The notes under the pieces: model-generated
Databases searched by the model: none
The model's input: the letters and a program-made list of their open reading frames with translations, nothing else
What the model was told of the DNA's origin: nothing
Assembly: GCA_964655375.1 (NCBI GenBank)
Contig: CAZZNB010000045.1
Span: 2,015-66,014, forward strand
Origin: an uncultured Candidatus Saccharibacteria bacterium
Lineage (GTDB): Bacteria > Patescibacteriota > Minisyncoccia > UBA6257 > HR35
Length of the DNA: 64,000 nt
Direction: 5' to 3'
Translations under genes and position numbers: made by a program
Shown: piece after piece, positions 6,262 through 24,793 of the stretch
Numbering within the stretch: the first letter of the stretch is position 1
How the letters are laid out: every line of letters starts with the position of its first letter

Positions 6262-6439
6262 TTTCTAATTCTATTTCTTTTAATGCTTCGTAGTTAATCT
6301 CTTTTTTATTTGTTCTTAGATAAATTTTTTTATTTTTATTATCTATCTTAATCTCACCTTTTAGATCAGGGTAAATATTTTTTATTTTTGAAGCTAAATT
6401 TAAAAGTTTTGTTTTTTTTATATTTATTTTATCCATCAA
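6215..6439 (-). CDS. Hypothetical small protein downstream of dnaN
   Basis: 74-aa K/E-rich ORF in an operon-like position after dnaN. It overlaps the PBP 3' end. No recognizable motif. Confidence 0.3.
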   Translation of the reverse strand: MMDKINIKKTKLLNLASKIKNIYPDLKGEIKIDNKNKKIYLRTNKKEINYEALKEIELEIKKNFLDYKIEILNY

Positions 6440-9009: not shown

Positions 9010-9049
9010 GGTTTAAATAATTATAATAAATATTATATAATTAAATAAA

Positions 9050-9169
9050 ATGGCAACAATAAGGAAGAAAAAAAGAAAAACAGGTTTTTTAGCGAGATCT
9101 AAATATAAAGGAGGCAAAAAAGTATTATTACGAAGGAGAAGAAAAGGCAGAAAAAGATTAACAAATTGA
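9050..9169 (+). CDS. rpmH: 50S ribosomal protein L34
   Basis: Manual translation gives MATIRKKKRKTGFLARSKYKGGKKVLLRRRRKGRKRLTN (39 aa), matching the L34 consensus. Missed by the ORF track because of its size. The stop overlaps the rnpA start. Confidence 0.85.
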   Translation: MATIRKKKRKTGFLARSKYKGGKKVLLRRRRKGRKRLTN

Positions 9170-9486
9170 TGCTTTCAAAGAAATATAGATTTAAAAATTT
9201 TGATTTTAAAAAATTTCAAAAATCAAATAAAATTTCAAACGAAGTGTTTACTTTGATGAAAATACAGCCAGAAAATAATATACCTAAATTTTCAATTATT
9301 GTAGATAAAAAAAATATAAAAAAAGCTACTAAAAGAAATAAAATAAAAAGGAAGATTTATGAAGCAATCAGATTGAATTTAGATAAAATCCCTTTAGGAT
9401 ATTATTTGATTAAAGTCAAGAAAGATATTTCAAATGAAGATTTCAAAAGTATAGAAGATAGATTAATAAAGTTATTTAGAAAATAA
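9166..9486 (+). CDS. rnpA: RNase P protein component
   Basis: 106-aa basic protein immediately after rpmH, the conserved rpmH-rnpA-yidC order. The KRNKIKRKIYEAIR segment is RnpA-like. The start codon may be TTG. Confidence 0.65.
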   Translation: MMLSKKYRFKNFDFKKFQKSNKISNEVFTLMKIQPENNIPKFSIIVDKKNIKKATKRNKIKRKIYEAIRLNLDKIPLGYYLIKVKKDISNEDFKSIEDRLIKLFRK

Positions 9487-9491
9487 AAAAA

Positions 9492-10133
9492 ATGTTTCAA
9501 ACAATTTTCGTGGAACCATTAACTAACATATTAAAGTTTTTAAGCTTATATTTGAATGATTTTGGTTTAGCTATTATAACATTTAGTTTGTTTTTAAAAA
9601 TTTTAACATCGCCTTTATCATTTTTACAATTTAGAGAAGAAATTAAGTTAAAAAAAATAAATGAAAAAATAAATAAATTGGCAAAAAAAGAAAAAGATAT
9701 TTTTAAAAAAGCAGAAATAATATCGAAAATCTATGAAGAAGAAAATTTTAATCCTTTTTATAATTTTCTAATTCAACTTTCCACCTTGCCTTTCTATTTA
9801 GCTGCCTTTTTTGTTATTCAAAATTTTTTAAAAAATTTAACAAATCCTTATTTTTTGAATTTAATAGATTTAACTAAACCTAATATATTTTTAGGAAGCT
9901 TAGTTATTTTTATTCAATTGATTTTTGTTTTTATTCAACCTAAAGAATATAGAAAGATGCTTTTGTTTATAACTGCGATTTTTTCTGGAATAATTTTTTT
10001 GTTTTCTTCAGGATTTTTGCTTTATATTTTCGGTATAATTGTTTTAGGTTTAATAGAAAGAAAATTATTTAATTGGTATTACATAAAGTCTGGCGTCATT
10101 TCTGTTGAAGAAAATAACTCCTATAGAGGTTAA
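9492..10133 (+). CDS. yidC: YidC/Oxa1-family membrane protein insertase (short form)
   Basis: 213 aa with five hydrophobic segments. Conserved position after rnpA. LFLKILTSPLS...EEIKLKKINEKI resembles the YidC core. Confidence 0.6.
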   Translation: MFQTIFVEPLTNILKFLSLYLNDFGLAIITFSLFLKILTSPLSFLQFREEIKLKKINEKINKLAKKEKDIFKKAEIISKIYEEENFNPFYNFLIQLSTLPFYLAAFFVIQNFLKNLTNPYFLNLIDLTKPNIFLGSLVIFIQLIFVFIQPKEYRKMLLFITAIFSGIIFLFSSGFLLYIFGIIVLGLIERKLFNWYYIKSGVISVEENNSYRG

Positions 10134-11162
10134 AACAGGATTTATAATATCAAAATCTCCATCTAAATCATAATAATCTAATTTTAATTTCTGAGGATCA
10201 AAAATAATTAGTTTATCTGAAAATGTTTTTTTGTAATAATACCATTCATCTATTTTAGAAAAATCTTGGTCTTTTGGTACTCCGCAAATTAAAAGTTCTT
10301 TAAATGTGCATTTTTCTTTTAAAGTACCGAAATTAAATTCAATAATTTTATTACCATTTTTATCGATAATAAAACTTTTCCAGCTATTTTCTACATAACT
10401 AACAAAAATTAAATTATTTTTATTAGTTAAAGCACTTAATAACATTTTGGGTTCTAAAATTTGGATTTTTTCTTTCATATTTTTTATTAAATACAAAGGT
10501 GAAGCTTGAGTTGTTTTAAGATTTTCATAAAAAATAAAATCATTAGACAAATAATCAAAATCAGGGTTGAAAATATAAATATCTACAATTTTTTTAGGTT
10601 TTTCAGAGTATTTAGCTAAATAATTACCATCTACTGAAGTTATAAATAAATAAAGTTCATCATTAACCCAAAATCCACTTTTTACATTTATCGGTAGTTT
10701 TATCAACTTATCTCTAATTGTATCAAGTAACCAAAAATTATCATCTTTAAATAAAACTAACAAATTACTTTTAGAAAAACTTAAATTCTTAATATTATCT
10801 CTTTTAAATATTTCTTTATAGGTTTTATCCTCTATATTATAAGTTTTTATAACTTTATTTTTTGGATCATAACCATAAATGTAAGGATAATCAATTTTAG
10901 GATAAAGAAGAATAGCGTCAATTAATAAAGATACTGATTTTAGATTAGCTTTTGAGGTAGTAGAAGTTTCCGGCATTTCATTTGTGTCCTTTGGTGGAAT
11001 TTCTTCAGCAAGAAATTCAATTGGTGAAGTAACCCTTTCTTCTCTTTTTAGTTCTTCTATTTTAGGTTTTTTGGGAAATAATTCTTTATATAATAAAATT
11101 CCAAACCCTACAAGAATAATTAAGCCTATAACCAAAAATAAAATTTTAAAAACCCTACTCAT
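10065..11162 (-). CDS. Membrane-anchored secreted protein, last gene of the T4SS-like operon (possible VirB8/TcpC-like)
   Basis: 365 aa with one N-terminal TM segment. 4-nt overlap with the upstream gene. Its 3' end converges on yidC. No motif recognized. Confidence 0.3.
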   Translation of the reverse strand: MSRVFKILFLVIGLIILVGFGILLYKELFPKKPKIEELKREERVTSPIEFLAEEIPPKDTNEMPETSTTSKANLKSVSLLIDAILLYPKIDYPYIYGYDPKNKVIKTYNIEDKTYKEIFKRDNIKNLSFSKSNLLVLFKDDNFWLLDTIRDKLIKLPINVKSGFWVNDELYLFITSVDGNYLAKYSEKPKKIVDIYIFNPDFDYLSNDFIFYENLKTTQASPLYLIKNMKEKIQILEPKMLLSALTNKNNLIFVSYVENSWKSFIIDKNGNKIIEFNFGTLKEKCTFKELLICGVPKDQDFSKIDEWYYYKKTFSDKLIIFDPQKLKLDYYDLDGDFDIINPVLTSIGVIFFNRNDARLYVIPIK

Positions 11163-11833
11163 TTTTTAAATCTCAAATAAATAATTATTCCAAAAATTAA
11201 TAAAATTACAAAAATTACTGCAGTGATTAATAAAATATGATAAAAAGTTTTTTCTGGAGCCATAGTAGTTGGTGTTATTGTCTCTAGTTCTTTAATTTCT
11301 TTTTGTGGTATTATTTTTTCTTCAAATTTTTTATAAGGAATAGAAATTTCTTTTTCAAAAACAGTTAAAGGATAATTGGGATTATTTGCTGAAGGGCAAT
11401 CAAATGGGCATAAAATTTCCTCTCCAGGATCACATATGTTATTTTCATTACACATATTAAACTCAGAAATATCTATTTCCCCTAAAACATTGTCATTTCT
11501 ATCTTTAAATATTAAATACTCGCTGTTAACTAAATATGGAATGTAAAGTTCATTTACTCCTATTTTCAAATCTATAGGAGAACTCCAGATATAGCCATTT
11601 CGATTAAAATACTCTATTTTAAAATTCCCTCCTATAGTCAAAACAGGAGAAACATCTATTAAATCTAAATTTAAGCTTTCTTTGTCATTTAATTTAACTG
11701 TTTTCCCATCAAAAATAACATTTAAATACAATACATCATAATATTCTTTACCTTCGGCATTTAAATAGCCACTTATCACTAAGATAAAAAGAAATATTAA
11801 AATTTTGAATTTTTTAACTGACCCCGCTTTCAT
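11159..11833 (-). CDS. Secreted Cys-rich protein with C-terminal membrane anchor (T4SS-like operon)
   Basis: Signal peptide, a CNENNICDPGEEILCPFDCP cysteine cluster, and a C-terminal TM segment followed by a RFKK tail. Confidence 0.3.
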   Translation of the reverse strand: MKAGSVKKFKILIFLFILVISGYLNAEGKEYYDVLYLNVIFDGKTVKLNDKESLNLDLIDVSPVLTIGGNFKIEYFNRNGYIWSSPIDLKIGVNELYIPYLVNSEYLIFKDRNDNVLGEIDISEFNMCNENNICDPGEEILCPFDCPSANNPNYPLTVFEKEISIPYKKFEEKIIPQKEIKELETITPTTMAPEKTFYHILLITAVIFVILLIFGIIIYLRFKK

Positions 11834-12836
11834 CCTTAATTGTTTTAATAATATTTGCTACAGCCGAATGTTGTCCTACTGGTACACCTGTTTTATAATA
11901 TAATAAAACAGAAATTAAATTATCCGAATACTGATAAAAGCCTGCTTTGTCTAATCTACGTTTATAGTTATGAAGTCTTTTAATTACTATTGCAGTAATT
12001 AAATATGGATTATCTAATTTACCTCCTACACCAATTTGTTTTGTATTAAAATCGTTAGGCGATAAGTTTATTTTGTTTTTAATTGAGTTAGGTAATTGAT
12101 TATAAACATTTTTAGCCTCTTTTACTAATTCTTGGTATGCAGCATATCTAGTAGTTGTATTAGGAGATCTTGTTCCAGTACCTGCTCTTCCCCATTCTAT
12201 CCCAAAAGCAGCAAATGAATATTCACCCCTCCCCCAATTTATAGGATTACACCTATGACCACCAGATTCGGTTATTAATAATGATTTAAGTAATATTTTT
12301 ATCTCTTTCTGGGATAAGCTAACCTCTGATTCAACAGCAGGAGGCTTAATTTTATACTGCGTTAAAGGAAATATAGAAACCCCAACTCCTGCATTTACTA
12401 GTTCATCAATTGCATCAAAAAACTCTTTACAACGAGCATAATTTGTAAAAGAATTTAAATTTAAATTCCTAGCCTGTCCTGTTTTTAATAAATTATTCAC
12501 AGCTTGAGTGCCTTCAATTATTATTTGTTGTACCTCTAATTCTATTATTTTATACATGATTAATCTTGCAGAAAAAATATAAGGATTGATCCAATAAAGA
12601 ATAACTCCAACAATAAAAATAATTGCAAGACCTATCATGGCATTTTTCATTCTATTTTTGCCTTGCATTTTTACATCAGGTATTGTAGATAAAAGATTTT
12701 CAAAAGCACCAAATAAAAATACAAAAAATGCAACTACTACGGCTAAAGCAACTAGCAGATTATAAATTCCTTGTAAACATGCTTGAATAGTAGAATCTGG
12801 ACCACAATATTGTATTATAAATTCAGTAATGTTCAT
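11814..12836 (-). CDS. Membrane-anchored putative cell-wall hydrolase (VirB1/PrgK-like) with pilin-like N-terminus
   Basis: Two N-terminal hydrophobic helices. A soluble domain with LLITESGGHRCNPINWGRGEYSFAAFGIEWG (an ES catalytic-like motif) suggests a lysozyme/transglycosylase-like fold. Confidence 0.35.
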   Translation of the reverse strand: MNITEFIIQYCGPDSTIQACLQGIYNLLVALAVVVAFFVFLFGAFENLLSTIPDVKMQGKNRMKNAMIGLAIIFIVGVILYWINPYIFSARLIMYKIIELEVQQIIIEGTQAVNNLLKTGQARNLNLNSFTNYARCKEFFDAIDELVNAGVGVSIFPLTQYKIKPPAVESEVSLSQKEIKILLKSLLITESGGHRCNPINWGRGEYSFAAFGIEWGRAGTGTRSPNTTTRYAAYQELVKEAKNVYNQLPNSIKNKINLSPNDFNTKQIGVGGKLDNPYLITAIVIKRLHNYKRRLDKAGFYQYSDNLISVLLYYKTGVPVGQHSAVANIIKTIKDESGVS

Positions 12837-13441
12837 TGCCGTTTAAAAATAATTCTATCTATAGCAAATTCATTTGAATCTAAATTATTCACATATAATA
12901 TAATCTCTGTTTCTTCATAGATATCAGAAGGATCGATCATAACACTAGAATATACTTTTTCACCAACTTTCCAGTTATAAGATAAATTATTAGAAGAAAA
13001 ATTAAATGTTAAAGGAAAAAGCAACTCCCCAGAATTATACTCTTTAAATGGTAAAATAATATTTAAGTCTTTTATATATCTAACAATACTTACAATTGGT
13101 TTAGGTTTCAAATTAAAACTAAAAGAATATTCTTTAAAGAAACTGTTATCATTTGGATAAACTTTGACTTTTCCTGAAAAATTTGGATTTTTAGGTGTAA
13201 AATATAATGTAGGTTTATAAGTTTTGAATTCCTCAAATGTATCTAAATAATTTATAGTCCATTCATAAATTAAATCTTCTAAATCATATTTTTTATTATT
13301 TGCATAGATATACCCCTCAATTCCAATGAAACAAATATCATTTCTTTTTTCAAAAGAAAAATAAGTATAATCTTTTTCTGCAATAACAAAATTAGAAAAT
13401 AAAATTAATGCCAAAATTATAATAAAAATTACCCTGCGCAT
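12833..13441 (-). CDS. Secreted hypothetical protein (T4SS-like operon)
   Basis: 202 aa with an N-terminal signal peptide. 4-nt overlaps with both neighbours. Confidence 0.3.
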   Translation of the reverse strand: MRRVIFIIILALILFSNFVIAEKDYTYFSFEKRNDICFIGIEGYIYANNKKYDLEDLIYEWTINYLDTFEEFKTYKPTLYFTPKNPNFSGKVKVYPNDNSFFKEYSFSFNLKPKPIVSIVRYIKDLNIILPFKEYNSGELLFPLTFNFSSNNLSYNWKVGEKVYSSVMIDPSDIYEETEIILYVNNLDSNEFAIDRIIFKRQ

Positions 13442-13458
13442 ATTAAAATTATAAAATA

Positions 13459-13965
13459 TTATTCTTCTTCTTTTTCTTCTTTCTCTCCTTTAATTCTTTT
13501 TTTAACTTGCATCAATCTTTTTATCCTCCATCTCGAAATTACCCTCCCTAAGGTTTTTGAAGGGAAAATGTCTGTTAATTGAGCTAATGGTACAAAAGTT
13601 ATTATTAATTCATAAAATACTATAATAATATATATTAAACCTTCTACCCTTCCTATAACATTATTTCTGATATAATGCCATATTAAATAGGTAAATATAA
13701 AGGCTCCAGGGATTTCGAAAATTAAAGAAATATAAGGAAGAATAAATAAAATTCCCGCTGTTCCAGTTGCAATTAAATCAAAAACTATCTCTAAAATATC
13801 CGCAATAATTAAAAAAAAGCCTGCGATCAACCACAAAAAATTTATACCTAAACTATCTTCTGCTTCCTCAAATTCTCCCCTTTCTCTTTTTTCTATCTCT
13901 TTTTTATATTCCTCCTCAATCCTTTTTTTAGTATATTCTAGTAGTTTTTCTGTTTTTATTTTCAT
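13459..13965 (-). CDS. Small 2-TM membrane protein with charged termini (T4SS-like operon)
   Basis: 168 aa. A central pair of hydrophobic helices is flanked by K/E-rich termini. Confidence 0.3.
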   Translation of the reverse strand: MKIKTEKLLEYTKKRIEEEYKKEIEKRERGEFEEAEDSLGINFLWLIAGFFLIIADILEIVFDLIATGTAGILFILPYISLIFEIPGAFIFTYLIWHYIRNNVIGRVEGLIYIIIVFYELIITFVPLAQLTDIFPSKTLGRVISRWRIKRLMQVKKRIKGEKEEKEEE

Positions 13966-15761
13966 TCTCTAATTTTAGATGCCTCTTTTATAGCAGATAA
14001 TTGTTCTAAGCTTGCCTTTATTATTTGGTCTTCAGCATAAGAAGCTAACACATATAATGGAATTCTTTTTAAACCTGCAATTAAAATTCCTCTTCCTCTT
14101 TCTGCTTGAACTAAAAACCTTTTTTCTCCTTCAGATAATGCAAAAACTTGTCCAACTAAATCTATTGTAGCAGGTGATTGTTTCATTAAAAATACTAATG
14201 CAGAGTTTGTAATAATAGGTTTTCCATAAGGTGAGTTCAAAAAATCTTCAGCATCTTGTGTAATTGTTGTAATACCTAAAAGATATTTTCTTCCTCTTTT
14301 AATTGCATTAAGCAAAAAATTAGCTCCAGACTCATTTTTCATTATCCACCAGGCTTCATCAATTATTACAATTCTCCTTTTTCTTATTCTCCTTACTTTA
14401 TTCATTAAATCATTTAAAACCATATACATTCCAATAGGTCTTAATTCCTCAACTAAATCTCTAAATCCAAAAACAACAATTCTTTTATTAACATCTACAT
14501 TTGTTGGTTGATTAATAAAGCCACTAAAATTACCTTGAGTGAATGGATATAATTTTTCAGCAATCTCTTTCCCTCCCTCAATACTTAACAATACTTTTTC
14601 AAAATCATTTAAAGTAGGGAAAATTTCTATTTTAGAAAAATCAGAACTTGGCAAAATATTAAAAGAAGCATAGGTTTGATGAATAGCTCTATCCACAATA
14701 GTAAGTTCTTCTGCATTAAATTTTTCTCCTATTATAACTTCTAATAACCCTATAATATCACTAACTTTTTCTTTATAAACGTCTTCAGGACTTTCTCCTT
14801 CTAAAACAGGCGGTAAATCAAAAGGATTTATGTGATATTCTGATCTTAAAGAAATAGGAATAAAAGAACCTCCATAAATTTCAGCTATAGATTGATATTC
14901 ATTTTCTGGGTCAAGAATAATAACATCTTGCCCTAACATTAAATTTCTCATAACTTCTATTTTTGTAGTATAGCTCTTCCCTGCTCCTGATCTTGCAATT
15001 ATAACCATATGAGCATTTTCAAAAGCAAATCTATCTAAAAGCACCAAGGAATTGTCTTGTAAATTAATTCCTATTAACACACCTTTATCCATAGAAAGCT
15101 CTGAAGAAATAAAAGGGAAAAAAGAACTTGCTGCAGAAGAATTCATAGAGTAATTTACGTTTAAATAATCTTTACAAAGAGGTAAATTAGATAAAAAAGC
15201 ATTTTCTTGCTCTAAAATTACTGGCTTAGCAATTATCAGGCTGCTTTCTAAAAGTTTTATAATCTTATGCTCTCTTACTAATAAATCATCTTTATTTTCT
15301 CCAAAAATGGTTAAATATAAACCGATATTTAAAATTTTTTCTGTTCCTTGAATAATTGCATTCTTCAATTCTTCTATATCTTTGTAAGCAGTTTCTAATC
15401 TTGGATCTCTTGGGAGGCCTTTTTCTTCAATCTCTCTTAACTGGCTTTCTATTCTTAAAGATTGTTTATTTAATTGTTTTAAAAACACTCCAGGATCTCT
15501 TGGTATAAAAAATATTGAAAGATTGAAAGGTTCAGGTAAAGATAAAATATTTTCTAACCAACCAGCAAATAAAAACCTTGGGTAAGTGATAACTATTATA
15601 TTTTTTCCATATATTTCTCCTATTTGAAAATCAGAAATATTAAAAATAGCAGCAGGAGGAGCAATGATGTTTTTTATTTGTTCAAATCCCTTCTTCTCCT
15701 CAATTACTGGTATTCCTATTTTACTGTTTTGTTTTTTTAAAAAAGGAAATTTTATTTTCAT
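13962..15761 (-). CDS. VirB4/TrbE/CagE-family T4SS ATPase, ATPase-domain portion
   Basis: 599 aa. Walker A IIARSGAGKSYTTK, Walker B RRIVIIDEAWWIM (the DEAW signature) and a C-terminal ITQ...GEKRFL...GRGILIAG region are typical of VirB4 C-terminal domains. Confidence 0.65.
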   Translation of the reverse strand: MKIKFPFLKKQNSKIGIPVIEEKKGFEQIKNIIAPPAAIFNISDFQIGEIYGKNIIVITYPRFLFAGWLENILSLPEPFNLSIFFIPRDPGVFLKQLNKQSLRIESQLREIEEKGLPRDPRLETAYKDIEELKNAIIQGTEKILNIGLYLTIFGENKDDLLVREHKIIKLLESSLIIAKPVILEQENAFLSNLPLCKDYLNVNYSMNSSAASSFFPFISSELSMDKGVLIGINLQDNSLVLLDRFAFENAHMVIIARSGAGKSYTTKIEVMRNLMLGQDVIILDPENEYQSIAEIYGGSFIPISLRSEYHINPFDLPPVLEGESPEDVYKEKVSDIIGLLEVIIGEKFNAEELTIVDRAIHQTYASFNILPSSDFSKIEIFPTLNDFEKVLLSIEGGKEIAEKLYPFTQGNFSGFINQPTNVDVNKRIVVFGFRDLVEELRPIGMYMVLNDLMNKVRRIRKRRIVIIDEAWWIMKNESGANFLLNAIKRGRKYLLGITTITQDAEDFLNSPYGKPIITNSALVFLMKQSPATIDLVGQVFALSEGEKRFLVQAERGRGILIAGLKRIPLYVLASYAEDQIIKASLEQLSAIKEASKIRE

Positions 15762-16387
15762 TCTTCAATTGCTTGCATTAATTCTTCAAATAATTTTATT
15801 GGTGCCATACCCCATCTAGGATTAGGATTATAAAGCTCATAAAAAAGCTGTATTAATTCTGGTGTTTTCAATCTTATTGGTTGCAGGCCTATAGCAGATA
15901 ATTTTTCTGTTATGTATATTACTCTTGTTTCTAATTGTTCTAATTGTTGATAAAATTCCTCCTCCTTTTTATATTCTTTTTTAAAAACCCCACCAACTTT
16001 AATTACCTCTGTTTCATAAGGAACAACAAAATAAAATAATTTTTTCATGATTCTATGGGTTTCTATATAATCTTGAATAAATTTTATATATTCTTCTAAC
16101 TGAATTTTAATTAATGGTTCTGTTTCTTGTTCTAATCTTTCTTTTAAATAATTTACATATCCTTCAATATAAGCTAATCTAGAGACTACAAAAATTTGAA
16201 CATTAAAATCTAATCCATCTAATAATTCTTTAAATAATCCTACAACAGCTTCTTTTTCTTGCTCAGAAAGCAAAGAAAAGTTAATTCCAGGAACAGCCAA
16301 AATTGCTCTTAATTCTCCATCTTCTGTTATAACCACATCATCTCTAATGTCTTTTATTTTTATTAAATGAGATGTACTTTTTACCAT
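15758..16387 (-). CDS. VirB4 N-terminal domain-like protein, apparently split from the downstream ATPase ORF
   Basis: 209 aa. LIKIKDIRDDVVITEDGELRAILAVPGINFSLLSEQEKEAV resembles the N-terminus of Gram-positive VirB4 homologues (TcpF/PrgJ type). It ends in an ATGA overlap with the ATPase ORF. Combined length of about 808 aa equals a full VirB4. Confidence 0.4.
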   Translation of the reverse strand: MVKSTSHLIKIKDIRDDVVITEDGELRAILAVPGINFSLLSEQEKEAVVGLFKELLDGLDFNVQIFVVSRLAYIEGYVNYLKERLEQETEPLIKIQLEEYIKFIQDYIETHRIMKKLFYFVVPYETEVIKVGGVFKKEYKKEEEFYQQLEQLETRVIYITEKLSAIGLQPIRLKTPELIQLFYELYNPNPRWGMAPIKLFEELMQAIEE

Positions 16388-16905
16388 CTTCTTTTAGGGA
16401 ATTTTGGTATCGGGAAATTAATATAAGGATCATATGGGTTATAACCATGTTTATGTGCAGAATTTATGTATTCAGAAAGAGGATTTTCAATGACTACTTC
16501 TTTTTCAGGTTTTTTGAGTTCTTCAATTCTTTCAATTTTCTTTTCAGGAATTTCTTCTTCTAATAATTCTACATATTTTTCAATTGTTGGCACATTTACA
16601 TACTTAGTTACAATTTTAACCTCTTCTCTCCAAATATACTTTTTTGAAGAAAACAATACTTTAACCAATTCTGGTAAATATAAGATTACTGATTTATTAT
16701 TAATTTTCCCCCAACCTATTAAAACTGCTAAGAGGAATGCTAAGATAGTTACTATTAAAGCGAATAAAGTAGGTAACAATTTAAAAGATCCATATGAAAT
16801 TAAAAAAGCAAAGAAAACTAAGAACAATTGAGCATAAGTGAAAGAAATAGTCCCAAGATATATTTTATCTTCTATGTTTATATACTGTGGTACGCTAAAT
16901 CTCAT
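16381..16905 (-). CDS. VirB3/PrgI-like 2-TM protein
   Basis: 174 aa with two adjacent hydrophobic helices. Located immediately upstream of the VirB4-like genes, the conserved VirB3-VirB4 order. Confidence 0.35.
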   Translation of the reverse strand: MRFSVPQYINIEDKIYLGTISFTYAQLFLVFFAFLISYGSFKLLPTLFALIVTILAFLLAVLIGWGKINNKSVILYLPELVKVLFSSKKYIWREEVKIVTKYVNVPTIEKYVELLEEEIPEKKIERIEELKKPEKEVVIENPLSEYINSAHKHGYNPYDPYINFPIPKFPKRRW

Positions 16906-16913
16906 TAAAATAA

Positions 16914-17573
16914 TTATAAATCAGAAAGGTCTATAACTCCTTCTTCTTTTTGTTTTTTCTCCTCCTGCTTTTTTATAATAACAATCCCAGGTTGTTTTTC
17001 TTCTTTAGGTTTCGGTGGTTGCCATGAAATAGTCTGATTTATATCTACTACTTTTTTAGGTATTTCCGTTTTAATAGGTTGAATGTCAGAAAGGTCTATT
17101 GCTGACTCCTTTTTTTCTTCTATTTTTCTAATCTCTTCTGATTTTGGAGGAATAACTTTTTGCAAATTCAATAATTTTGTAGGACTTGGTTTTTCTTTTA
17201 TTTTTTGTATTATATCAACTAATTCACTTGGTACTGATTTTATAACCTTTTCCTCTTTTTCTTCTCTTTTTTGAACTGTTTGCCAGACAGAATTAACTAA
17301 AGGGAAAAATTTATTTTTAATATGAAAAGCTAAACTACCTGCATCTTCATCATTTAATCCTAATCTTTGTTTTATTATTTCTTTTAAATCCATATTTTCA
17401 TCAATTAACTTAACTACTATATCTTGTAAAAGATATATAAATTCTATTTCTTTTTCCCCTTTCAGCTCAAATTTTTTTATGTACTCATCTAAAAATGAAT
17501 AAAAATCATCAGAATACAAAAATGATTGTACTTCTAATGGAGCAGAAGAATATGCGTCTAAAAAAGAAGCCAT
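16914..17573 (-). CDS. Acidic hypothetical protein (T4SS-like operon)
   Basis: 219 aa, E/K-rich, no TM segment. Confidence 0.3.
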   Translation of the reverse strand: MASFLDAYSSAPLEVQSFLYSDDFYSFLDEYIKKFELKGEKEIEFIYLLQDIVVKLIDENMDLKEIIKQRLGLNDEDAGSLAFHIKNKFFPLVNSVWQTVQKREEKEEKVIKSVPSELVDIIQKIKEKPSPTKLLNLQKVIPPKSEEIRKIEEKKESAIDLSDIQPIKTEIPKKVVDINQTISWQPPKPKEEKQPGIVIIKKQEEKKQKEEGVIDLSDL

Positions 17574-17587
17574 TATTTAATTATAAA

Positions 17588-20068
17588 CTAAGAAGAGGGA
17601 GGAGTGCCAGATTGAGGAGTTTGGGGTGGAGAAGTAGCCAATAAGTCTATCAATCTTCTTCCCCATTCCGCTTCTCTTCCTACAGGAGGTGGAGTCTTTA
17701 ATGCTCCACGGAGCTTAGTAAGAAGAATAATAATATTTGATTTTTGATCTTCATCGAGTGAAATTTGAGAAGGCGGTGTGATATGAGTAGGTATTCCTAA
17801 GTATTGCAAAAAATTATCAGGATCTTGTGCCCATTCTTGTAGCCTTCCTATATTATCTTTAATCGATTTTTTAATCTCATCTGGAGTTTTGCTCAAGATT
17901 CTAGCAATTTCTTGAATATTGTCTTGTATTGGATCTTGTGGATCTTCTAATACATAATCTCCGTAAGTGCCTATATATCCTTGAATATATACTAAATTTT
18001 CTTGAAGTATTTTTCGATTTTCTTCGCTAAGAGTAGGCTGTAATTGTTGGCCAATTCTTTGGTTTATAGCATTTATTAATTGGTCTGGGTTTTGTAATAA
18101 CTCTTCTTCTAATTTACCTTCTAAAAATTTTTCATGTAGAACCCCCTCGATAGTTTTTTCAAGATCGGGTCTATTTAATACCTGAGCTATATCTTTTGCT
18201 CCATCTTTTACTACTGCTCTATAAGCAAGTGTCCCTTGTATTGAGCCGAGATTAGCATTTATAAAATCTTGTTCGTCGTGATCACGTAACCATCTTATGT
18301 TTTCTGGAGTCCAGAAATTTCTTTTATTTGGTATATATGTATACATATTTCTAATTAAGAGGGGATGTTGTTCTTCATCAATACCAGCCCTACTTAATAC
18401 TCTGCTTAAATGAGATAAATTTGCTGATCGCCAATCCATCCTACTTGCTATTTGATTTAAAGCCCTTATCTTTTCTTCTTGATCTCCTGTTACTAATCTA
18501 GTTAAATTACAATCAAATGTTCTTCCACAAAGATTTTTTAATACACCTGTTTTAGCAGCTTTTTGTAAATCTAAATTACCAGCAATTTGAATAATTTCAT
18601 CTGCTCCTTTTTCTCTTTCAGCTAATTTAGCTAATTCTTTTTGTAATGGGGCTGGATATCTTTGAATTATTCTTGCAATTTCTTCAGGGCTTTTATCTTT
18701 AATCTGTTCCCAAATTGCTCTAGCTTGTTCTTCAGCTTCTTTTTTCTTTGGCTTTCTTAATTCTGATCCTAAACCCTGTACCTTTGTTCCTAAGTTTCTA
18801 ATTAAATTAAACCTAGACATAGCTAAATACCCCCCAAGTGTTTCTAGCCCTGCCCCCAATTTATCTAAAGCTGGTTTACCTGTAAATTCTTTTCCAGCCC
18901 ATAATAAAGCTCCACCTGCAAGTCCCCATAATCCTAAACCTAATCTATAAGAATATTCTGCTGCTCTACTACCTAATCTTAAAGCGGCAAATAAAACAAA
19001 TAAGAAATATATAGCTATAAAAGCAAATTTTATTATTACACCTAATAACATCGCTGTTTCTTGAGTTATATTTTGTAAAAGACCACTAGCCTTTTGTTGT
19101 TGTATAAATAAATTAGCTAAAGTCTGTTCATTAAACTTCTCCTGGTTTATAGCAATTAAAGAAACGCCTATAATTATTAATATAATCAAAATTAGAATAT
19201 TGAAATTCCAAGTAAGAAACATTTGCCACCATTGACCCCATCTATTTCTATACCAAGGGGTAGTATAAGCTACACAAGCTAACGGTAATATGCCTACTAA
19301 AAAAGAAATTATTAAAAATCTTCCTATAGATATTCCTGCAAATATCCACATGATTAAAGAATAGACAACATTTAATAAAATACCTAATAATTGTATTGCT
19401 ATAACTAAAGCCACCCGCATATTATGTATAGCTCCAGGGCTTGTTTCTCCGCTTGCTTCTGCTAATCCAGGTATTAAAGCTTCAAAATTAGTTACCATTG
19501 CTTTTGGTGGTACAAGAGATAAAGAGGCATAAATTAAATCTCCCAATCTACTTATATCTTTATTTTCAGGATCATATAAACCCGCTGATTGTAATATACC
19601 CCTTTGCAGATACCAAACTGCCATAAAAAGTTCTTTGGCCAATATAAATGTGAAATTAATTAAAAATGCTATAATTAAAATTCCAAAAAGCATTCTTTTA
19701 GCTTCATCTTCTCTATTTAATATCCACTCAAAACCAGCTATTAAAGCTAAAAATACTATAACTACATAAGATATATTTTTGAAAAATTCCCATAAAATAG
19801 AAGCAGCTCCGAATTGACCAAATGGATCTAATATTATGAAGAAGTTAATAATAATAGCAGCAAATTGAGATAATAGATTAAAAAGTAATGAAGTTGCAGA
19901 AAGAGCAACTCCTGCTAGAAACTTAACTAGTTCTAAAATCCAACCTACTAATCCTCCTGTTCTTCTCCATAATTCAACAACTCCTATCCCAAGAAGCCCT
20001 AAAACTCCGCCAATAGCTATAGCAGCTAATAAGGTTATGCCTCTATTTTTGAAATATCCTTTTCTCAT
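17588..20068 (-). CDS. VirB6/TrbL/TcpH-like polytopic membrane protein with long C-terminal extension
   Basis: 826 aa with more than 8 hydrophobic segments over the first 420 aa, followed by a ~400-aa soluble domain. Located upstream of the VirB3/VirB4-like genes. Confidence 0.45.
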   Translation of the reverse strand: MRKGYFKNRGITLLAAIAIGGVLGLLGIGVVELWRRTGGLVGWILELVKFLAGVALSATSLLFNLLSQFAAIIINFFIILDPFGQFGAASILWEFFKNISYVVIVFLALIAGFEWILNREDEAKRMLFGILIIAFLINFTFILAKELFMAVWYLQRGILQSAGLYDPENKDISRLGDLIYASLSLVPPKAMVTNFEALIPGLAEASGETSPGAIHNMRVALVIAIQLLGILLNVVYSLIMWIFAGISIGRFLIISFLVGILPLACVAYTTPWYRNRWGQWWQMFLTWNFNILILIILIIIGVSLIAINQEKFNEQTLANLFIQQQKASGLLQNITQETAMLLGVIIKFAFIAIYFLFVLFAALRLGSRAAEYSYRLGLGLWGLAGGALLWAGKEFTGKPALDKLGAGLETLGGYLAMSRFNLIRNLGTKVQGLGSELRKPKKKEAEEQARAIWEQIKDKSPEEIARIIQRYPAPLQKELAKLAEREKGADEIIQIAGNLDLQKAAKTGVLKNLCGRTFDCNLTRLVTGDQEEKIRALNQIASRMDWRSANLSHLSRVLSRAGIDEEQHPLLIRNMYTYIPNKRNFWTPENIRWLRDHDEQDFINANLGSIQGTLAYRAVVKDGAKDIAQVLNRPDLEKTIEGVLHEKFLEGKLEEELLQNPDQLINAINQRIGQQLQPTLSEENRKILQENLVYIQGYIGTYGDYVLEDPQDPIQDNIQEIARILSKTPDEIKKSIKDNIGRLQEWAQDPDNFLQYLGIPTHITPPSQISLDEDQKSNIIILLTKLRGALKTPPPVGREAEWGRRLIDLLATSPPQTPQSGTPPSS

Positions 20069-23000
20069 TTTATGTAAATCTTTTTTGGTTTGAATATATT
20101 GAATGCATTAAATATACTTGCAATTAAATTCTTTGTAATCTCAAATGTCCTTCTGATTAAACCAAACTTAGTTTCCTTTTGCATTTTATAGCTTTCTGAT
20201 TCAGGAAGAGAAGGAATAGGTTCTTGTGATTCAGATTTTAATTCTTCTTCAATAGATCTTAATAAATCATTGTAATTTTTGCATAACTCATAATTTTCAT
20301 TCATAATGTTGTTAATCTCTTCTGTATAATTTTCTAAATTATTCGCGATTTTATTAATTTCTTCTTCATCCAATTTAGATAAGTATTCATTCCATACTCT
20401 ATTTGTTTCTTCTTCTAAAAGCTTATTTAGTTCATTTAATTTATTTTTTAAGATAACTAATTCCTCTAATTCTGTTCCATGTTCCGTTATTAATTCTTTT
20501 ATTTTTATTAAAATATTTTTATATGAAGACGATAAATCTTTTAAATACTCTAAAGCCTCACCAAGTTTTAAAGCAATTGCCTTAGTTAGTTTCTTTGGTT
20601 CTGCAGAATATCGGAATTCAAACTCATACAGAGGAGTATTAGCTGGGGTAGTAACAGTTTTTGTGTATTGAATAGTATTGTTAGCATAAGCTTCTATTTT
20701 TTCAAAATAAGGAATTAAATAATCATCAATTTCTTTTTGAATTTGGTTCAATTGCGAAGGATCATAAGCGCCTGAAATTATATTATTGAGATGGGTATTA
20801 AGAGAATTTAAGAAATAACTTTGTTCAATTGTAGTTTGTGATGAACCATACAAAGAATAAAGAATAATTAAAAGATCATGGGCAATAAGATAGATAGAAG
20901 CATAACGGTTAGTAGAAGCTTTAATTTCATCTTTTCCATCTCCATGAATATCTACAGTGCTATCTTCATATCTTGAACTAATCCAATCATAAGTTAACTC
21001 AGAAAGCTTTAAATCAAATAAATAAGTTGGATAAAATTTTTTATAAAAACTTAATTTAACCTCTTCTTTTAAATTAGGATAAATTATAGGTTGTTTTCCT
21101 TTATAAGTACAAGAGCCTGCTATAATCTTATCTGAAAGATCCTCCCGTTGTGCTTCATCATAATAAAATATGTAATAAGAAGGAAAAGATAGACACTTAG
21201 AAGATTTTTTAATTAATTTTTCTACATCAGGATAATCACTGAAAAATGTCATTAATTTATTGTTATACCCTATATTATATAATTTTGACATTTCAAAATT
21301 AATTGATTTTATTTTGTCTTCAATTTTGCTCTCTACTTCCTGTATTTTTTGAGAAGTAGAAGCAATTTCAAGATTTAATTGTGTAATAGTAGCACTTTCT
21401 AAAAGCTGATTGATATTTCTTAGCTCCTCTAAAGTAGATGAAGGAAGAAAATTCTGAATTTGGATTAATCTTTCCGAGTTTTTATTAAACAAAAATTCTA
21501 TTTGTTCAAGTTGTATGAGTTTTTCTTCGGATAATTTTAAGTTTTGGTTTTCTAAATAACTATATAGCTCATCATTAAATGAAGTTGTAGTAGATAAATA
21601 ATTTTCTGTTTCATTTATGACCTTTGTTAGTTTATCTAGAATTTTGATTAATTTTTTGTAAGAAGCTTCAATTTCAGATTGAGCAATTTCTGCAGTTTTC
21701 GCTAATTGAGATTCCAAAGTATCCTTACAAGCTTGTTTTAGTCCAGGAGAATCTAAATATTCTGTTTTCGAACAAATCTTTTCTATTCTTTCTTGAGAGT
21801 AAGCATTTTTTATATCTGTTAGAATTTCGTTTTTAGTTTTTCTGCTTTCTAAACTTGCAAAGCCTTTATCTATTATTTTGAATAATTTAGTTGAAAGCCA
21901 AGATCTTATAAATGCAACTAAAACATTAGCTGCCCTTTCTTGAGATTTAAAGAACTCCAAAGGAGAAAGTAGGATTTGTTCTTTTAGTTTTTCAAAATCA
22001 GAAGGAGAAGAGAGTGTAGGACCAGGAATTAAACATCTTGGATCTTCACCAGATATATTTTTTTCTTGATCAATTCTTTGATTAACATCTTGTAATTTCT
22101 TATCTAGCTCTTGAACTTTTTCTGTATCACCTTCTTCCATAGCTTGTGCTATTTGTTTCATAACTTCCTCTCTTTCTACTTCGCTCCAACTCTTTAGACA
22201 CTCAGTTTTAGGTTTAAATGTAAGCCCTCCTTGTTGTTGGAATTGAATATCTAATTTCTCTTTCTCTTTTTCTAATTCAGCATTAATTTCTGCTAGATCT
22301 CGAGAGATTAAATAAGAGCAATTTTTAAGTTGAATTTCTGTATTTATTTTTTCAATATAAGGGAAAAGAATGCTGCTATAAGAAGAAAAATCTTGCGATG
22401 GGTAAAATTGAGCTAAAAGATTTTTAGGATTAATTAAATTAAAAATATTAGCTAAAGCATTTTGTGGTTTAGTTTCAATTTTCGCAATTAATTCTTTAGG
22501 TTTACTGTTAAAAGCAGACGAAGCACCTTCAAATCCACCCCAACTTTCTAAAGCTTCTTCATAAATAGGTTCTGTTATACCTAAATTTTTATAAACAAAA
22601 ATTTCCTCTTCTGGTTCGCATGGTCTTTTGCTTAATATATTTAATTCTTGTAATTTCATAAATGCATTAAAATACTTCATTAATTTACGAGCGTTTTCAG
22701 ACTGTGATGCTAAATCAAGCCCAGCTATAGTATTGTTTTTTAAAATACTGGCAAAACACCATCTTAGATCATCTGGAATACACGGCAAATCTTTATATTT
22801 ATTTAAAATTCTATTTAAACCCTTTTGTTGCGCCAAAAATAACCTAAAATTTCTATATAAATTGATGTCAGAAATGTAATTTTTTAAAATTTTGTTATAG
22901 ATAAAATCATTTATTTTACTAATTAACTTAAACTTGAAATATTCTAATGCATCTTTAATAGCGAGCTGAATAGAGGCTTTAATTGATGCAGCTAAATTTT

Positions 23001-23373
23001 TAGTAGTTTCTTTTAGGGAGTTTCTTATATCTATATTTACTTCACGTGCGCCTACTGGAACTTTACCTATTAAACCACTTATTACATCACCAATTATTCC
23101 TGTTAAAATCTCAGCCAAAAATCCTCTTAATAAACTTTCAAAAAAACCAGGAGGTTTAGGCTCCTTACCAGAAAAATATTCAAATTCACTTATATATTCA
23201 ACTGTATCAGTAGTATATTCTAATTCCTCTATTTTTATAGGATCAGGAATTTTGCATTGAAGATAATAAGAAGAAAAGTCTATTTCATTATAATCTTGAG
23301 AAAAAACAAAATTTAATGGGATATTTAATGTTAATATGCTTATTATGATTAAAAATACAATAATTTTTTTCAT
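20065..23373 (-). CDS. Giant secreted coiled-coil protein (surface or adhesin-like), first gene of the operon
   Basis: 1102 aa with an N-terminal signal peptide MKKIIVFLIIISILTLNIPLNFVFS. Extensive heptad-like E/K/L-rich stretches. No LPXTG motif. Confidence 0.4.
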   Translation of the reverse strand: MKKIIVFLIIISILTLNIPLNFVFSQDYNEIDFSSYYLQCKIPDPIKIEELEYTTDTVEYISEFEYFSGKEPKPPGFFESLLRGFLAEILTGIIGDVISGLIGKVPVGAREVNIDIRNSLKETTKNLAASIKASIQLAIKDALEYFKFKLISKINDFIYNKILKNYISDINLYRNFRLFLAQQKGLNRILNKYKDLPCIPDDLRWCFASILKNNTIAGLDLASQSENARKLMKYFNAFMKLQELNILSKRPCEPEEEIFVYKNLGITEPIYEEALESWGGFEGASSAFNSKPKELIAKIETKPQNALANIFNLINPKNLLAQFYPSQDFSSYSSILFPYIEKINTEIQLKNCSYLISRDLAEINAELEKEKEKLDIQFQQQGGLTFKPKTECLKSWSEVEREEVMKQIAQAMEEGDTEKVQELDKKLQDVNQRIDQEKNISGEDPRCLIPGPTLSSPSDFEKLKEQILLSPLEFFKSQERAANVLVAFIRSWLSTKLFKIIDKGFASLESRKTKNEILTDIKNAYSQERIEKICSKTEYLDSPGLKQACKDTLESQLAKTAEIAQSEIEASYKKLIKILDKLTKVINETENYLSTTTSFNDELYSYLENQNLKLSEEKLIQLEQIEFLFNKNSERLIQIQNFLPSSTLEELRNINQLLESATITQLNLEIASTSQKIQEVESKIEDKIKSINFEMSKLYNIGYNNKLMTFFSDYPDVEKLIKKSSKCLSFPSYYIFYYDEAQREDLSDKIIAGSCTYKGKQPIIYPNLKEEVKLSFYKKFYPTYLFDLKLSELTYDWISSRYEDSTVDIHGDGKDEIKASTNRYASIYLIAHDLLIILYSLYGSSQTTIEQSYFLNSLNTHLNNIISGAYDPSQLNQIQKEIDDYLIPYFEKIEAYANNTIQYTKTVTTPANTPLYEFEFRYSAEPKKLTKAIALKLGEALEYLKDLSSSYKNILIKIKELITEHGTELEELVILKNKLNELNKLLEEETNRVWNEYLSKLDEEEINKIANNLENYTEEINNIMNENYELCKNYNDLLRSIEEELKSESQEPIPSLPESESYKMQKETKFGLIRRTFEITKNLIASIFNAFNIFKPKKIYIK

Positions 23374-23376
23374 TTT

Positions 23377-24024
23377 TTATAATTTCTCAATAAGTTTTTC
23401 TTGTAAATCTATTAATTCATCTAAAATTACACTTAATATATAAGCATATTCAGGATCTTCTGTTAAAGCAATATTTTTTAAAGAATAACCAATTCCTGCA
23501 AGCAAGAGAGTTTGTGCTTTATGGAAATTGTAATAATCTTTTGGAACCTCTATTTTTGAAAAATCTTCGGTTATAGATAGAATAAGTTCCGCAGAATTAT
23601 TTAATGCATCTTTATTGTTGAAATCAATTTGGATAAATTTCATTTTATTTAAAACATTTTTTATTTCATTGGCGTAAATTTTATAATCTTTACTTTTATT
23701 TATTTTTATGTTTTTAATATATGTAGATGCAAATTCTAAAATTTCTGCTTCTATTTCTGTTTTTCTATTTGATAATTTTAAATTTTCTATCTTACTTATA
23801 AAATTTATTTCTTTATAAATTTTACTTTCAGGGGTTTTAATAAAGTTGATAATCTCCTTAAATTCAGGCGGAGCATCTTCTAAAATCTTTTCATATTTTT
23901 CTTTGCTTTCATTTTTTGACAAAGAGATATTTTTATTTAAATTTAAAAATCCTATTAAAGTTATCACAAGAAAAATAGTAATTGCCGATAAAATCGTTAA
24001 CAGCTTTTTGTTTATTTTTAACAT
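23377..24024 (-). CDS. N-terminally anchored hypothetical protein
   Basis: 215 aa with one TM segment near the N-terminus. Lies between tRNA-Thr and the 1102-aa gene. Confidence 0.3.
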   Translation of the reverse strand: MLKINKKLLTILSAITIFLVITLIGFLNLNKNISLSKNESKEKYEKILEDAPPEFKEIINFIKTPESKIYKEINFISKIENLKLSNRKTEIEAEILEFASTYIKNIKINKSKDYKIYANEIKNVLNKMKFIQIDFNNKDALNNSAELILSITEDFSKIEVPKDYYNFHKAQTLLLAGIGYSLKNIALTEDPEYAYILSVILDELIDLQEKLIEKL

Positions 24025-24029
24025 TTTTG

Positions 24030-24101
24030 AGCCAGCAGCGGGATTCGAACCCGCAACCTACTCCTTACGAAGGAGTCGCTCTACCATTGAGCTATGCTGG
24101 C
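24030..24101 (-). tRNA. tRNA-Thr (anticodon CGU)
   Basis: The reverse complement folds as a cloverleaf: acceptor GCCAGCA/TGCTGGC, anticodon stem ACTCC/GGAGT, loop TTCGTAA, T-arm GCGGG-TTCGAAT-CCCGC. Confidence 0.85.
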
Positions 24102-24126
24102 CTATTAAATAATTTTAAAATTAAAT

Positions 24127-24411
24127 TTAAAAATTTTCAGGCAAAATAATAACTTTTTCATCAGGCTCTACTAAGTTAAATTTCTCTTTCATTTCCTTTT
24201 TAAAATTTTCAGGATCTGATAAATATTTTAATTTTTCTTTTAATTCTCTGTTTTCCTTTTCAAGTTTTTCTATATAATTTTTATAAACTCGAAATTCTTC
24301 TTTTAAAGGTTTATTTTTGATTTTTTCTTTAACAATAAAATATCCTAAATAAAAAATAATAGTAATTTGTAAAAATATTAAAAAAATTATTAATTTATTA
24401 GACATTTTCAT
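24127..24411 (-). CDS. FtsB/DivIC-like septum formation initiator
   Basis: 94 aa with an N-terminal TM segment and a coiled coil. The C-terminal LSDPENFKKEMKEKFNLVEPDEKVIIL matches the FtsB signature. Confidence 0.55.
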   Translation of the reverse strand: MKMSNKLIIFLIFLQITIIFYLGYFIVKEKIKNKPLKEEFRVYKNYIEKLEKENRELKEKLKYLSDPENFKKEMKEKFNLVEPDEKVIILPENF

Positions 24412-24793
24412 ATTTTTTTATTTTAATTTTCTTTCCTATTTTTATAGTAATTAAACCATTTACATACTCATTTATTTTATGAAGATTAGTATAGTATAAA
24501 ATCAATTTCTCTAATTTTTTCTTTTTCGCTCTAGTATAATGAATTGAAGGATCAAAATCTAAATTTGATTTCAATGCTTTAACTTCATAAAAATAATATA
24601 CATTATCCTTTATAGCAATAATATCTATTTCCCCAAATCTTTTTAACCAATAATTTGTCTCTATTATTTTATAACCTTTTTTAATAAGAAATTTTTGAGC
24701 AATATTTTCTGCAACCTCTCCAATTTTTTTCATATTAATAAAAAAATCTTCTATAAAAAATCTCCCATAAGGGTATTGAATTTTCATATTCAT
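24398..24793 (-). CDS. YraN-family (UPF0102) endonuclease-like protein
   Basis: GEVAENIAQKFLIKKGYKIIETNYWLKRFGEIDIIAIKDNVYYFYEVKAL matches the YraN/UPF0102 core. The true start is probably the internal Met near 24733. Confidence 0.55.
   Translation of the reverse strand: MNMKIQYPYGRFFIEDFFINMKKIGEVAENIAQKFLIKKGYKIIETNYWLKRFGEIDIIAIKDNVYYFYEVKALKSNLDFDPSIHYTRAKKKKLEKLILYYTNLHKINEYVNGLITIKIGKKIKIKKYENV

Follow-up and report, generated by a model that had tools for sequence, protein, structure and literature searches.

The window examined here is a 64-kb stretch of contig CAZZNB010000045.1 (assembly GCA_964655375.1, positions 2,015 to 66,014), and its subject is a block of twelve genes that we interpret as the operon of a chromosomal type IV secretion system (T4SS). 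This block comprises twelve ATG-started open reading frames (ORFs), designated G1–G12, which are read from the minus strand between 24024 and 10065 and are all co-directional (Table 1).

A twelve-gene operon between tRNA-Thr and yidC

Neighboring genes of the block overlap by 4 nt at five of the eleven junctions (G2/G3, G6/G7, G7/G8, G9/G10 and G11/G12), by 7 nt at G5/G6 and by 20 nt at G10/G11, while the remaining junctions are gaps of 3–17 nt. These overlapping or tightly spaced junctions indicate a translationally coupled operon. An earlier reading of this DNA, made from the sequence only, had described eleven or twelve co-directional genes with frequent 4-nt overlaps, lying between a tRNA-Thr gene and the 3′ end of yidC; the count now stands at twelve, and ARAGORN, Rfam and Pfam agree on both borders. 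The tRNA-Thr(CGT) gene lies 4 nt upstream of the G1 start in the same orientation as the operon, and is preceded by genes for DivIC, YraN, a DUF5673-like protein and LeuS (Pfam). On the downstream side, yidC and G12 converge, with 3′ ends that share 69 nt (10065–10133); the orthologous pair in a related contig (L081, see below) shares 36 nt. Transcription of the operon proceeds in the direction of the dnaA region. The G+C content is approximately 23–34% across the block, without a step at its edges.

An assembly join, the possibility of which had been raised in the sequence-only reading, was rejected: an independent assembly (ENA ERZ27289263) again contains the DNA running from the 3′ end of virB4 (G7) to dnaN, and a Logan contig of shorter length (SRR7539629) spans G10 to dnaN. 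A promoter/terminator scan of 9000–25600 gave results at chance level (110 vs 98 expected and 5 vs 5.4 expected, respectively), so that these counts permit no statement on transcription units. A scan of ten operon proteins against PHROGs yielded zero matches, and thus no link to phages.

Components of the secretion apparatus

G7 carries both Walker motifs (Table 1) and matches the NCBIfam model conju_CD1110 (VirB4-like conjugal transfer ATPase, CD1110 family) with 340 bits (cutoff 325, E 2.8e-101), Pfam P-loop_TraG with 85 bits, and the VirB4 C-domain in PDB 4AG5 with E 2e-30, in agreement with the VirB4-family ATPase proposed earlier. The sequence-only reading had named FtsK/HerA as the families that would speak against it. 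If the ATPase were such a HerA/FtsK-type DNA pump with unrelated membrane neighbors, the locus would not be a T4SS at all, and G7 does show weak matches to DUF87/HerA (Pfam E 5e-10; PDB 4D2I E 1e-3). The VirB4-specific models score far above these, and PrgI-like, TrsD-like, VirB6-like and T4SS_pilin neighbors stand in canonical order. The DNA pump therefore already fails on the present evidence, and we consider its probability negligible.

The alignment of G7 with PrgJ of pCF10 (25% identity over 567 residues, E 2e-37) covers PrgJ residues 225–778, from which it follows that G7 lacks the first ~225 residues of a VirB4. The top 120 of its 2912 retrieved homologs are 57–98% identical to G7, and nearly all of them are likewise ~600 aa long; every named one belongs to Patescibacteria/Parcubacteria, and most are unnamed metagenome proteins. 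Among the nearest VirB4s (57–97% identity), those of 594–621 aa retain the split form. Plasmid VirB4s of Firmicutes and Actinobacteria are just 28–34% identical. The affinity of G7 with patescibacterial VirB4s was judged from this identity ranking of matches.

Judged by sequence profiles, the missing N-terminal part is supplied by G6, and the VirB4 of this operon is split. The sequence LIKIKDIRDDVVITEDGELRAILAVPGINF (N-terminus LIKIKDIRDD...) is located in G6, which matches NCBIfam VirB4_plasma at positions 102–278 (E 1.6e-10) as well as the TrsD/TraD family (E 5e-6); the VirB4 N-domain-like ORF of the sequence-only reading thus holds. BLASTP of G6 against pCF10 PrgJ gave no match, and the N-domain kinship is seen by profiles only. 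We compared all twelve proteins by tblastn with 81 related loci, labeled L001–L081 (L081 lies on the same contig as L006), and found a G6 ortholog upstream of virB4 in 76 of them; the one in L081 carries PF26593 (TraC-like). In L077 (9332–11686; Candidatus Harrisonbacteria contig JACOXP010000003.1) the TrsD-like ORF and VirB4 form one 785-aa ORF, while they are separate in the 75 others. This single ORF directly supports the view of TrsD as a detached VirB4 N-domain.

Two membrane proteins complete the translocon set. G5 itself scores below the cutoff of Pfam PrgI (20.5 bits, E 7e-4); 24 of its 28 orthologs match this family (best E 6e-12) and six match TcpE. Its family profile aligns with pCF10 PrgI in hhalign (E 0.0014), including the N-terminal motif, and gave nothing meaningful in a PDB search. 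The assignment as a VirB3/PrgI-like protein with two transmembrane (TM) helices, suggested before, is therefore confirmed at the family level. G3 has ~7–8 TM helices within residues 1–370, followed by a hydrophilic C-terminal region of ~450 aa, a layout described as 'extended VirB6' (PMC12857230). Of its 25 family members, four match Pfam TrbL/VirB6 (best E 5.7e-5) and one matches TrbL_4, and the top PDB match of the family profile is TrwI, the VirB6 of R388 (E 0.015). Homology of G3 to VirB6 is thus weakly but consistently supported at the sequence level. The earlier call of a polytopic VirB6/TcpH-like protein stands to that extent; hhalign detected no relationship to pCF10 PrgH (E 0.063).

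G10 joins a pilin-like module to a larger domain. Its residues 15–83 match PF18895 (T4SS_pilin, VirB2-like; 33 bits, cutoff 26.6), here as part of a 340-aa protein and not as a short pilin. Among G10 homologs the N-terminal hairpin is 66–78% identical, with the invariant pattern GK..M..A..GL..IF..G..L.WINP.IF, while the C-termini diverge. The positively charged loop between the two helices, as read from the sequence, would place the C-terminal domain outside the membrane. In this domain the residues E190-S191-G192-G193 are invariant and lie at a helix end; the model is all-alpha with medium confidence (pLDDT 63). An exhaustive HMMER search of 1.84 billion representative sequences returned three cluster relatives of the domain; a fourth match was dismissed as a spurious TPR-repeat match. 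The C-terminal domain is probably a wall hydrolase, that is, a candidate VirB1 analog, and a lysozyme-like fold is plausible for the predicted structure. We rate the latter as no more than plausible because neither Foldseek (nothing significant in the PDB) nor Pfam supports it; G10 also showed no SLT, CHAP or LytM sequence signal. Of the membrane-anchored, lysozyme-like ESGG protein (VirB1/PrgK-like) proposed from the sequence, the anchor and the invariant ESGG motif remain, whereas lysozyme support and kinship with pCF10 PrgK (hhalign E 0.18) were not found.

Proteins at the G10 position of T4SS operons all retain the PF18895 module, and in two loci (L008 and L009) it is followed by a 3D (MltA-like) wall-lytic domain. 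More broadly, 49 of the 64 ORFs with a PF18895-like module near virB4 in 80 related loci (L001–L080) are at least 250 aa long, some reaching ~1100 aa. Ten sampled ones have no recognizable C-terminal family and look like 'extended pilins'. We found no description of this fusion pattern in PMC12102498. One reading of it is that in this lineage the VirB2-like 'pilin' is a conserved carrier at the N-terminus, through which large extracytoplasmic domains would be delivered to the T4SS, and not a simple pilus subunit. Within the operon the fusion partner of the module changes from lineage to lineage (the wall-lytic 3D domain in L008/L009, the putatively wall-lytic ESGG domain in the window), and VanY-, M15- and C39-type fusions of the hairpin occur elsewhere in related genomes. 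The latter are encoded outside T4SS loci, and the hairpin may accordingly be a general anchor. We regard the carrier idea as unlikely.

The same conserved hairpin is fused to VanY or Peptidase_C39_2 domains at L084:7001–7873 and L085:7001–7969. Their locus is conserved but is not a T4SS locus, and is bordered by a class II aminoacyl-tRNA synthetase gene on one side and by dtd on the other. These VanY and C39 fusions were dropped as positional orthologs of G10, because their context places them in a different locus.

The other seven proteins comprise five exported or membrane-anchored ones (G1, G2, G9, G11 and G12), a membrane protein (G8) and a soluble one (G4). G12 is a membrane-anchored, seven-bladed beta-propeller according to its AF2 model (built from 24 sequences; mean pLDDT 85.4), which is all-beta with ~28 strands. 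Foldseek places this model among generic propellers (Cdc20/Cdh1, TolB, BamB, Drp35) with E ~1e-7. The NTF2 fold that the sequence-only reading had suggested checking for this protein, and with it an NTF2-like/VirB8 identity, is thereby rejected. G12 is conserved in 12 loci, and a 100% identical copy occurs in public assemblies. G2 has no relatives in Pfam, NCBIfam, PHROG or PDB, and is 52% identical to its ortholog in L001 (VirB4 93% for the same pair). It had been likened to PrgA; its signal-peptide-like N-terminus holds, while BLASTP against pCF10 PrgA gave low-complexity matches only (best E 0.013).

G1 has no significant family in Pfam, NCBIfam or PHROGs, and its orthologs (28–61% identity) occur in only six closely related genomes (seven locus matches, with L081 on the L006 contig). 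G4, which has no TM segment by hydropathy, is conserved in 13 related loci; it has no family match, and its family profile found nothing in the PDB. G8 is poorly conserved, with tblastn matches in three loci and a 168-aa ORF at the same position in L081. For G9 there are ten orthologs, and its family profile matched neither the PDB nor pCF10 PrgL (hhalign E 0.23). G11, without a family match, has orthologs in five related genomes (six locus matches, again counting L081 beside L006).

Table 1. Features of the 64-kb window, in order of position
Feature	Position	Strand	Length (aa)	Description	Basis
Type IV pilus gene	2501–4159	-		PilB/PilC set (see text)	
dnaN	6436–7563	-		downstream flank	Pfam
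dnaA	7660–9009	-		downstream flank	Pfam
rnpA	9166–9486	+		downstream flank	Pfam
yidC	9492–10133	+		downstream flank	Pfam
G12	10065–11162	-	365	N-terminal TM helix, disordered linker 33–71, predicted seven-bladed beta-propeller 74–365	AF2 model
G11	11159–11833	-	224	signal peptide, four Cys, C-terminal TM anchor	hydropathy, composition
G10	11814–12836	-	340	T4SS_pilin hairpin ~15–90, all-alpha domain ~130–340	Pfam, model
G9	12833–13441	-	202	signal peptide or anchor	hydropathy
G8	13459–13965	-	168	membrane protein, 3–4 TM	hydropathy
G7	13962–15761	-	599	VirB4 ATPase body	Walker A GAGKSYTTK, Walker B IIDEAWW
G6	15758–16387	-	209	TrsD-like ORF, equivalent of VirB4 N-terminal domain	profiles
G5	16381–16905	-	174	2-TM PrgI/VirB3-like, directly upstream of split VirB4	hydropathy, profiles
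G4	16914–17573	-	219	soluble, Lys/Glu-rich tail, between VirB6-like and PrgI-like genes	
G3	17588–20068	-	826	polytopic, 'extended VirB6'-like architecture	hydropathy
G2	20065–23373	-	1102	signal-peptide-like N-terminus, large secreted/surface protein	hydropathy
G1	23377–24024	-	215	N-terminal TM anchor, lineage-specific	hydropathy
tRNA-Thr(CGT)	24029–24101	-		upstream of G1	ARAGORN (Rfam: 24030–24101)
Type IV pilus gene	41614–42852	-		PilB/PilC set (see text)	
Type IV pilus gene	42855–44561	-		PilB/PilC set (see text)	
ORFs without Pfam match	46824–52192			several, could be pilins	
SmpB	47946–48410	+			
G+C-rich island	53490–54030			~550 bp	
Island ORF	53576–53959	+	127	Pro/Gln-rich N-terminus	
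tmRNA	58574–58922	+			
5S rRNA	62050–62162	-			

A fixed chromosomal position beside dnaA

With 4 nt between them, the operon follows the 3′ end of a tRNA gene, which is the classic target of integrative and conjugative elements (ICEs), and its VirB4 belongs to a family named for ICE and plasmid ATPases. A decaying or domesticated ICE, inserted at the 3′ end of tRNA-Thr and stripped of integrase, relaxase and coupling protein, would account for both. Gene order in relatives argues against this. L081 comes from a contig of 634 kb that belongs to a hot-spring Parcubacteria bacterium whose VirB4 is 75% identical to G7, and its order of leuS, DUF, YraN, DivIC, the 12 genes, yidC, rnpA, rpmH, dnaA and dnaN is that of the window. 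The synteny leuS-YraN-DivIC-tRNA-Thr-[12 genes]-yidC-rnpA-dnaA-dnaN is complete in L004, L005 and L006/L081, and L001, whose contig stops within G10, is syntenic as far as it extends. Directly before the G1 ortholog, tRNA-Thr(CGT) is found in six of six relatives (L001, L003, L004, L005, L006 and L008). Thus, the tRNA gene, the twelve genes and both flanks are conserved together down to 75% VirB4 identity. The comparison of the tRNA-Thr flank that the sequence-only reading had called for revealed no empty site, as locus and tRNA are syntenic in all close relatives examined.

The linkage to dnaA extends further. Of 44 loci with at least 9 kb of downstream sequence, drawn from many candidate phyla, 42 have dnaA downstream of virB4 and on its strand, at a distance of 1.2–9.7 kb (median 5.2 kb); in the window, 4.95 kb separate the virB4 stop from the dnaA start. 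The marks of an insertion are likewise absent: neither a second copy of the tRNA-Thr 3′ end nor long direct repeats or an att repeat were found in the window, and the G+C content shows no step. Profile searches (Pfam, NCBIfam) detected no coupling protein (VirD4/TcpA), relaxase or integrase among the twelve genes, and a scan of the 37 other ORFs of the window, 11 of which have no Pfam match, detected no coupling protein, relaxase, integrase or recombinase. Most of these 37 are housekeeping and type IV pilus genes. The lack of VirD4, relaxase and integrase noted from the sequence therefore extends to the whole window.

In comparison with L001, the closest genome, synonymous divergence (dS) is near saturation (0.84–1.6), and all ten comparable ORFs (G1–G10) are intact. 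Because of this saturation, dN/dS ratios are unreliable, and only ORF integrity and contrasts in nonsynonymous divergence (dN) were used. The dN is 0.05 for G6 and G7, 0.26–0.33 for G1, G8 and G9, and 0.41–0.52 for G2 and G3, from which it follows that the rate of exported and membrane parts is up to ten times that of the motor. Intact ORFs at such divergence, together with synteny and dnaA linkage, leave the ICE reading very improbable; it already fails on the present evidence. The locus is fixed in the chromosome, where its place beside yidC-rnpA-dnaA is ancestral, and is not an ICE, and the tRNA-Thr adjacency is ancestral gene order, not an integration junction or att site. This agrees with the chromosomally fixed, T4SS-like apparatus of the sequence-only reading, and synteny, the conserved tRNA and the missing att repeat now support it.

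Some features of the window stand apart from the operon. GC skew over 1–64000 tracks the coding strand without a switch at dnaA/rnpA, so that oriC was not located by skew; a published gene-dosage idea is therefore neither supported nor refuted by this window. Two PilB-type T2SSE ATPases and one PilC (T2SSF) are encoded by type IV pilus (T4P) genes, and pilins may be among several ORFs without Pfam match. T4P and T4SS genes thus occur together in this organism, which has been reported for other Patescibacteria too. A small island has a G+C content well above the 27% of the genome (0.383 in the 53001–54000 bin) and no Rfam match. Its ORF has a GGAGG site and a G+C-rich, hairpin-like stretch upstream and a C-rich tract after it, and the island looks like a small foreign insert. 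Genes for tRNA-Ile(TAT), Val, Pro and Ala are dispersed on the minus strand.

Relation to known systems and possible functions

Taken together, we assign the operon, with a probability of roughly 0.8, to the known chromosomal, relaxase-less 'Patescibacteria-clade' T4SS, here in a low-G+C genome of Paceibacteria type (Parcubacteria), vertically inherited and derived from monoderm MPF-FATA conjugation machinery by loss of its DNA-processing half. The translocon set is present, as G3 (extended VirB6-like), G5 (PrgI/VirB3-like) and VirB4 split into G6 and G7. No type IV coupling protein (T4CP), relaxase, integrase or att sites were detected in the window and no PrgH/PrgK/PrgL homologs in the operon, which sets it apart from a conjugation system or ICE. 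Patescibacterial VirB4s have been described as a monophyletic clade nested in MPF-FATA (Quinonero-Coronel et al. 2025, PMC12102498). In that study TrsD is the commonest partner of virB4, next to PrgI/VirB3, VirB6 and PF18895 pilins; relaxases are absent, VirB1 homologs are linked to virB4 mainly in Paceibacteria, and the loci lie near dnaA, dnaN, rnpA and rpmH. In S. epibionticum, the T4SS and pilins are essential for epibiotic growth, and no coupling protein or relaxase is recognizable (Wang et al. 2023, PMC10633639). Patescibacterial T4SSs are also covered by a 2025 FEMS review (PMC12857230), their role has been called 'completely unknown' (PMC11665869), and tubular structures reported at a parasite–host interface may be T4SS pili (bioRxiv 10.64898/2026.06.21.733656).

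The operon shares with the published Patescibacteria-clade T4SSs, among them the S. epibionticum locus (SEML1_0006–0019), the patescibacterial VirB4 relatives with a TrsD-like ORF directly upstream of virB4, a PrgI/VirB3-like and a tentatively VirB6-like protein, the PF18895 module, a wall-hydrolase candidate downstream of virB4, and a chromosomal setting beside dnaA, dnaN, rnpA and yidC without relaxase or coupling protein. Saccharimonadia have an array of short stand-alone pilins, whereas the sole pilin-like module in the window is the N-terminus of a 340-aa protein; in addition, the window has the 1102-aa secreted protein, the anchored beta-propeller, G1, G4, G8, G9 and G11, a set particular to its lineage. 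With MPF-FATA systems (pCF10 prg/pcf, pIP501 tra, pGO1 trs, CTn2), the operon has in common a CD1110-family VirB4, a PrgI-family protein upstream and a monoderm architecture without VirB7, VirB9 and VirB10, and with the pGO1 subclass a separate TrsD-type N-domain ORF. It differs from them in its fixed chromosomal position, in lacking a detected VirD4/PcfC, relaxase, oriT-processing genes or integrase and detectable PrgH, PrgK, PrgL and PrgA homologs, and in having a VirB2-like module (G10), which Gram-positive systems lack. Like VirB1/PrgK/TraG hydrolases, G10 combines a membrane anchor with a predicted external C-terminal domain, encoded just downstream of virB4; its anchor is a pilin-like hairpin instead of a single TM helix. 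The system has, in sum, already been described and is ordinary for its lineage, and what is added to the published picture is limited to the way in which pilin modules are fused, the beta-propeller as a conserved part and the contrast in rates between motor and surface.

In T4SSs, VirB4 powers pilin extraction and channel assembly, VirB3 anchors VirB4 at the membrane, VirB6 is the membrane channel, and VirB1 opens the wall. By analogy, the G6/G7 ATPase (a VirB4 hexamer) would dock onto G5 and G3 at the membrane, and ATP-driven extraction of pilin-like modules from the membrane could yield a short wall-spanning pilus or conduit, while the C-terminal domain of G10 would locally open the peptidoglycan. 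G1, G2, G9, G11 and G12 may form the outer, host-contact part. The machine would thus probably serve epibiotic host-cell interaction (contact and macromolecule exchange) rather than conjugation. That no coupling protein was found is in keeping with a surface structure as the main product of the machine, or with coupling-protein-independent transport. Candidate cargoes are protein (export) or nucleic acid (import).

As an importer, the machine would take up host DNA or RNA as a source of nucleotides for a cell unable to make them, in the manner of H. pylori ComB or archaeal Ced. These are also chromosomal, T4SS-derived machines without relaxase or classical coupling protein, and G7 partially matches the archaeal DNA-import ATPases CedB (E 1.4e-15) and CedD. 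The idea has been raised before (PMC11665869), and host-RNA feeding has been reported along with VirB4 monophyly (bioRxiv 10.64898/2026.06.21.733656). However, the CedB/CedD matches are generic VirB4-family similarity, far under the cutoff (57 vs 700 bits), the locus contains no detected CedA- or ComB-specific component, and no nuclease or nucleic-acid-binding domain was detected in the twelve proteins. ComB and Ced are DNA-import systems, whereas for patescibacterial T4SSs import is a hypothesis. Given also that direction is silent in the sequence, we hold import to be possible but doubtful.

The same machine could instead inject effector proteins into a host bacterium or archaeon, with G2 as tip, adhesin or substrate. 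G1, G2, G3, G8 and G9 evolve ~5–10 times faster than VirB4 (the dN contrast with L001), as expected of host-facing parts; Ptl and Brucella VirB are examples of effector systems that do without a T4CP (cited in PMC12102498), and the same speculation has been made in PMC10633639 and PMC11665869. However, any surface protein would be expected to evolve equally fast, neither a candidate effector nor a secretion signal was identified, and the secretion systems known to work without T4CP are diderm ones that rely on Sec and a periplasmic step. Effector injection is therefore a tentative option, on a par with import.

Several points weigh against the assignment to a Patescibacteria-clade T4SS for host interaction. 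No role is assigned to seven of the twelve genes, and the VirB6 assignment of G3 rests on weak transitive matches (TrbL/VirB6 in four of 25, and TrwI). The pilin-like module may be a general membrane anchor and not a polymerizing pilin, as its paralogs outside T4SS loci suggest. Essentiality has been shown in Saccharimonadia only, a class other than Paceibacteria. Furthermore, VirD4-like genes lie far from virB4 in most Patescibacteria (PMC12102498), and a T4CP may exist elsewhere in this genome.

The system is near-universal in Patescibacteria, and epibiotic growth depends on it in the single species in which this was tested. The window presents no new kind of system but an example from Paceibacteria that is clean and complete, has been assembled independently and comes with a list of all its parts. 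G10 would unite a VirB2-like module and a VirB1-like function in one polypeptide, with a catalytic domain that is swapped between lineages. If the modules polymerize or dock on VirB4/VirB6, an enzyme-decorated stalk or pilus would result, and if this is true, the decorating enzymes could cut the symbiont's own wall or that of the host, as an 'armed pilus' breaching the neighboring cell. Finally, the membership of the beta-propeller and the fast evolution of the exported parts sharpen the choice of proteins for host contact and wall breaching.

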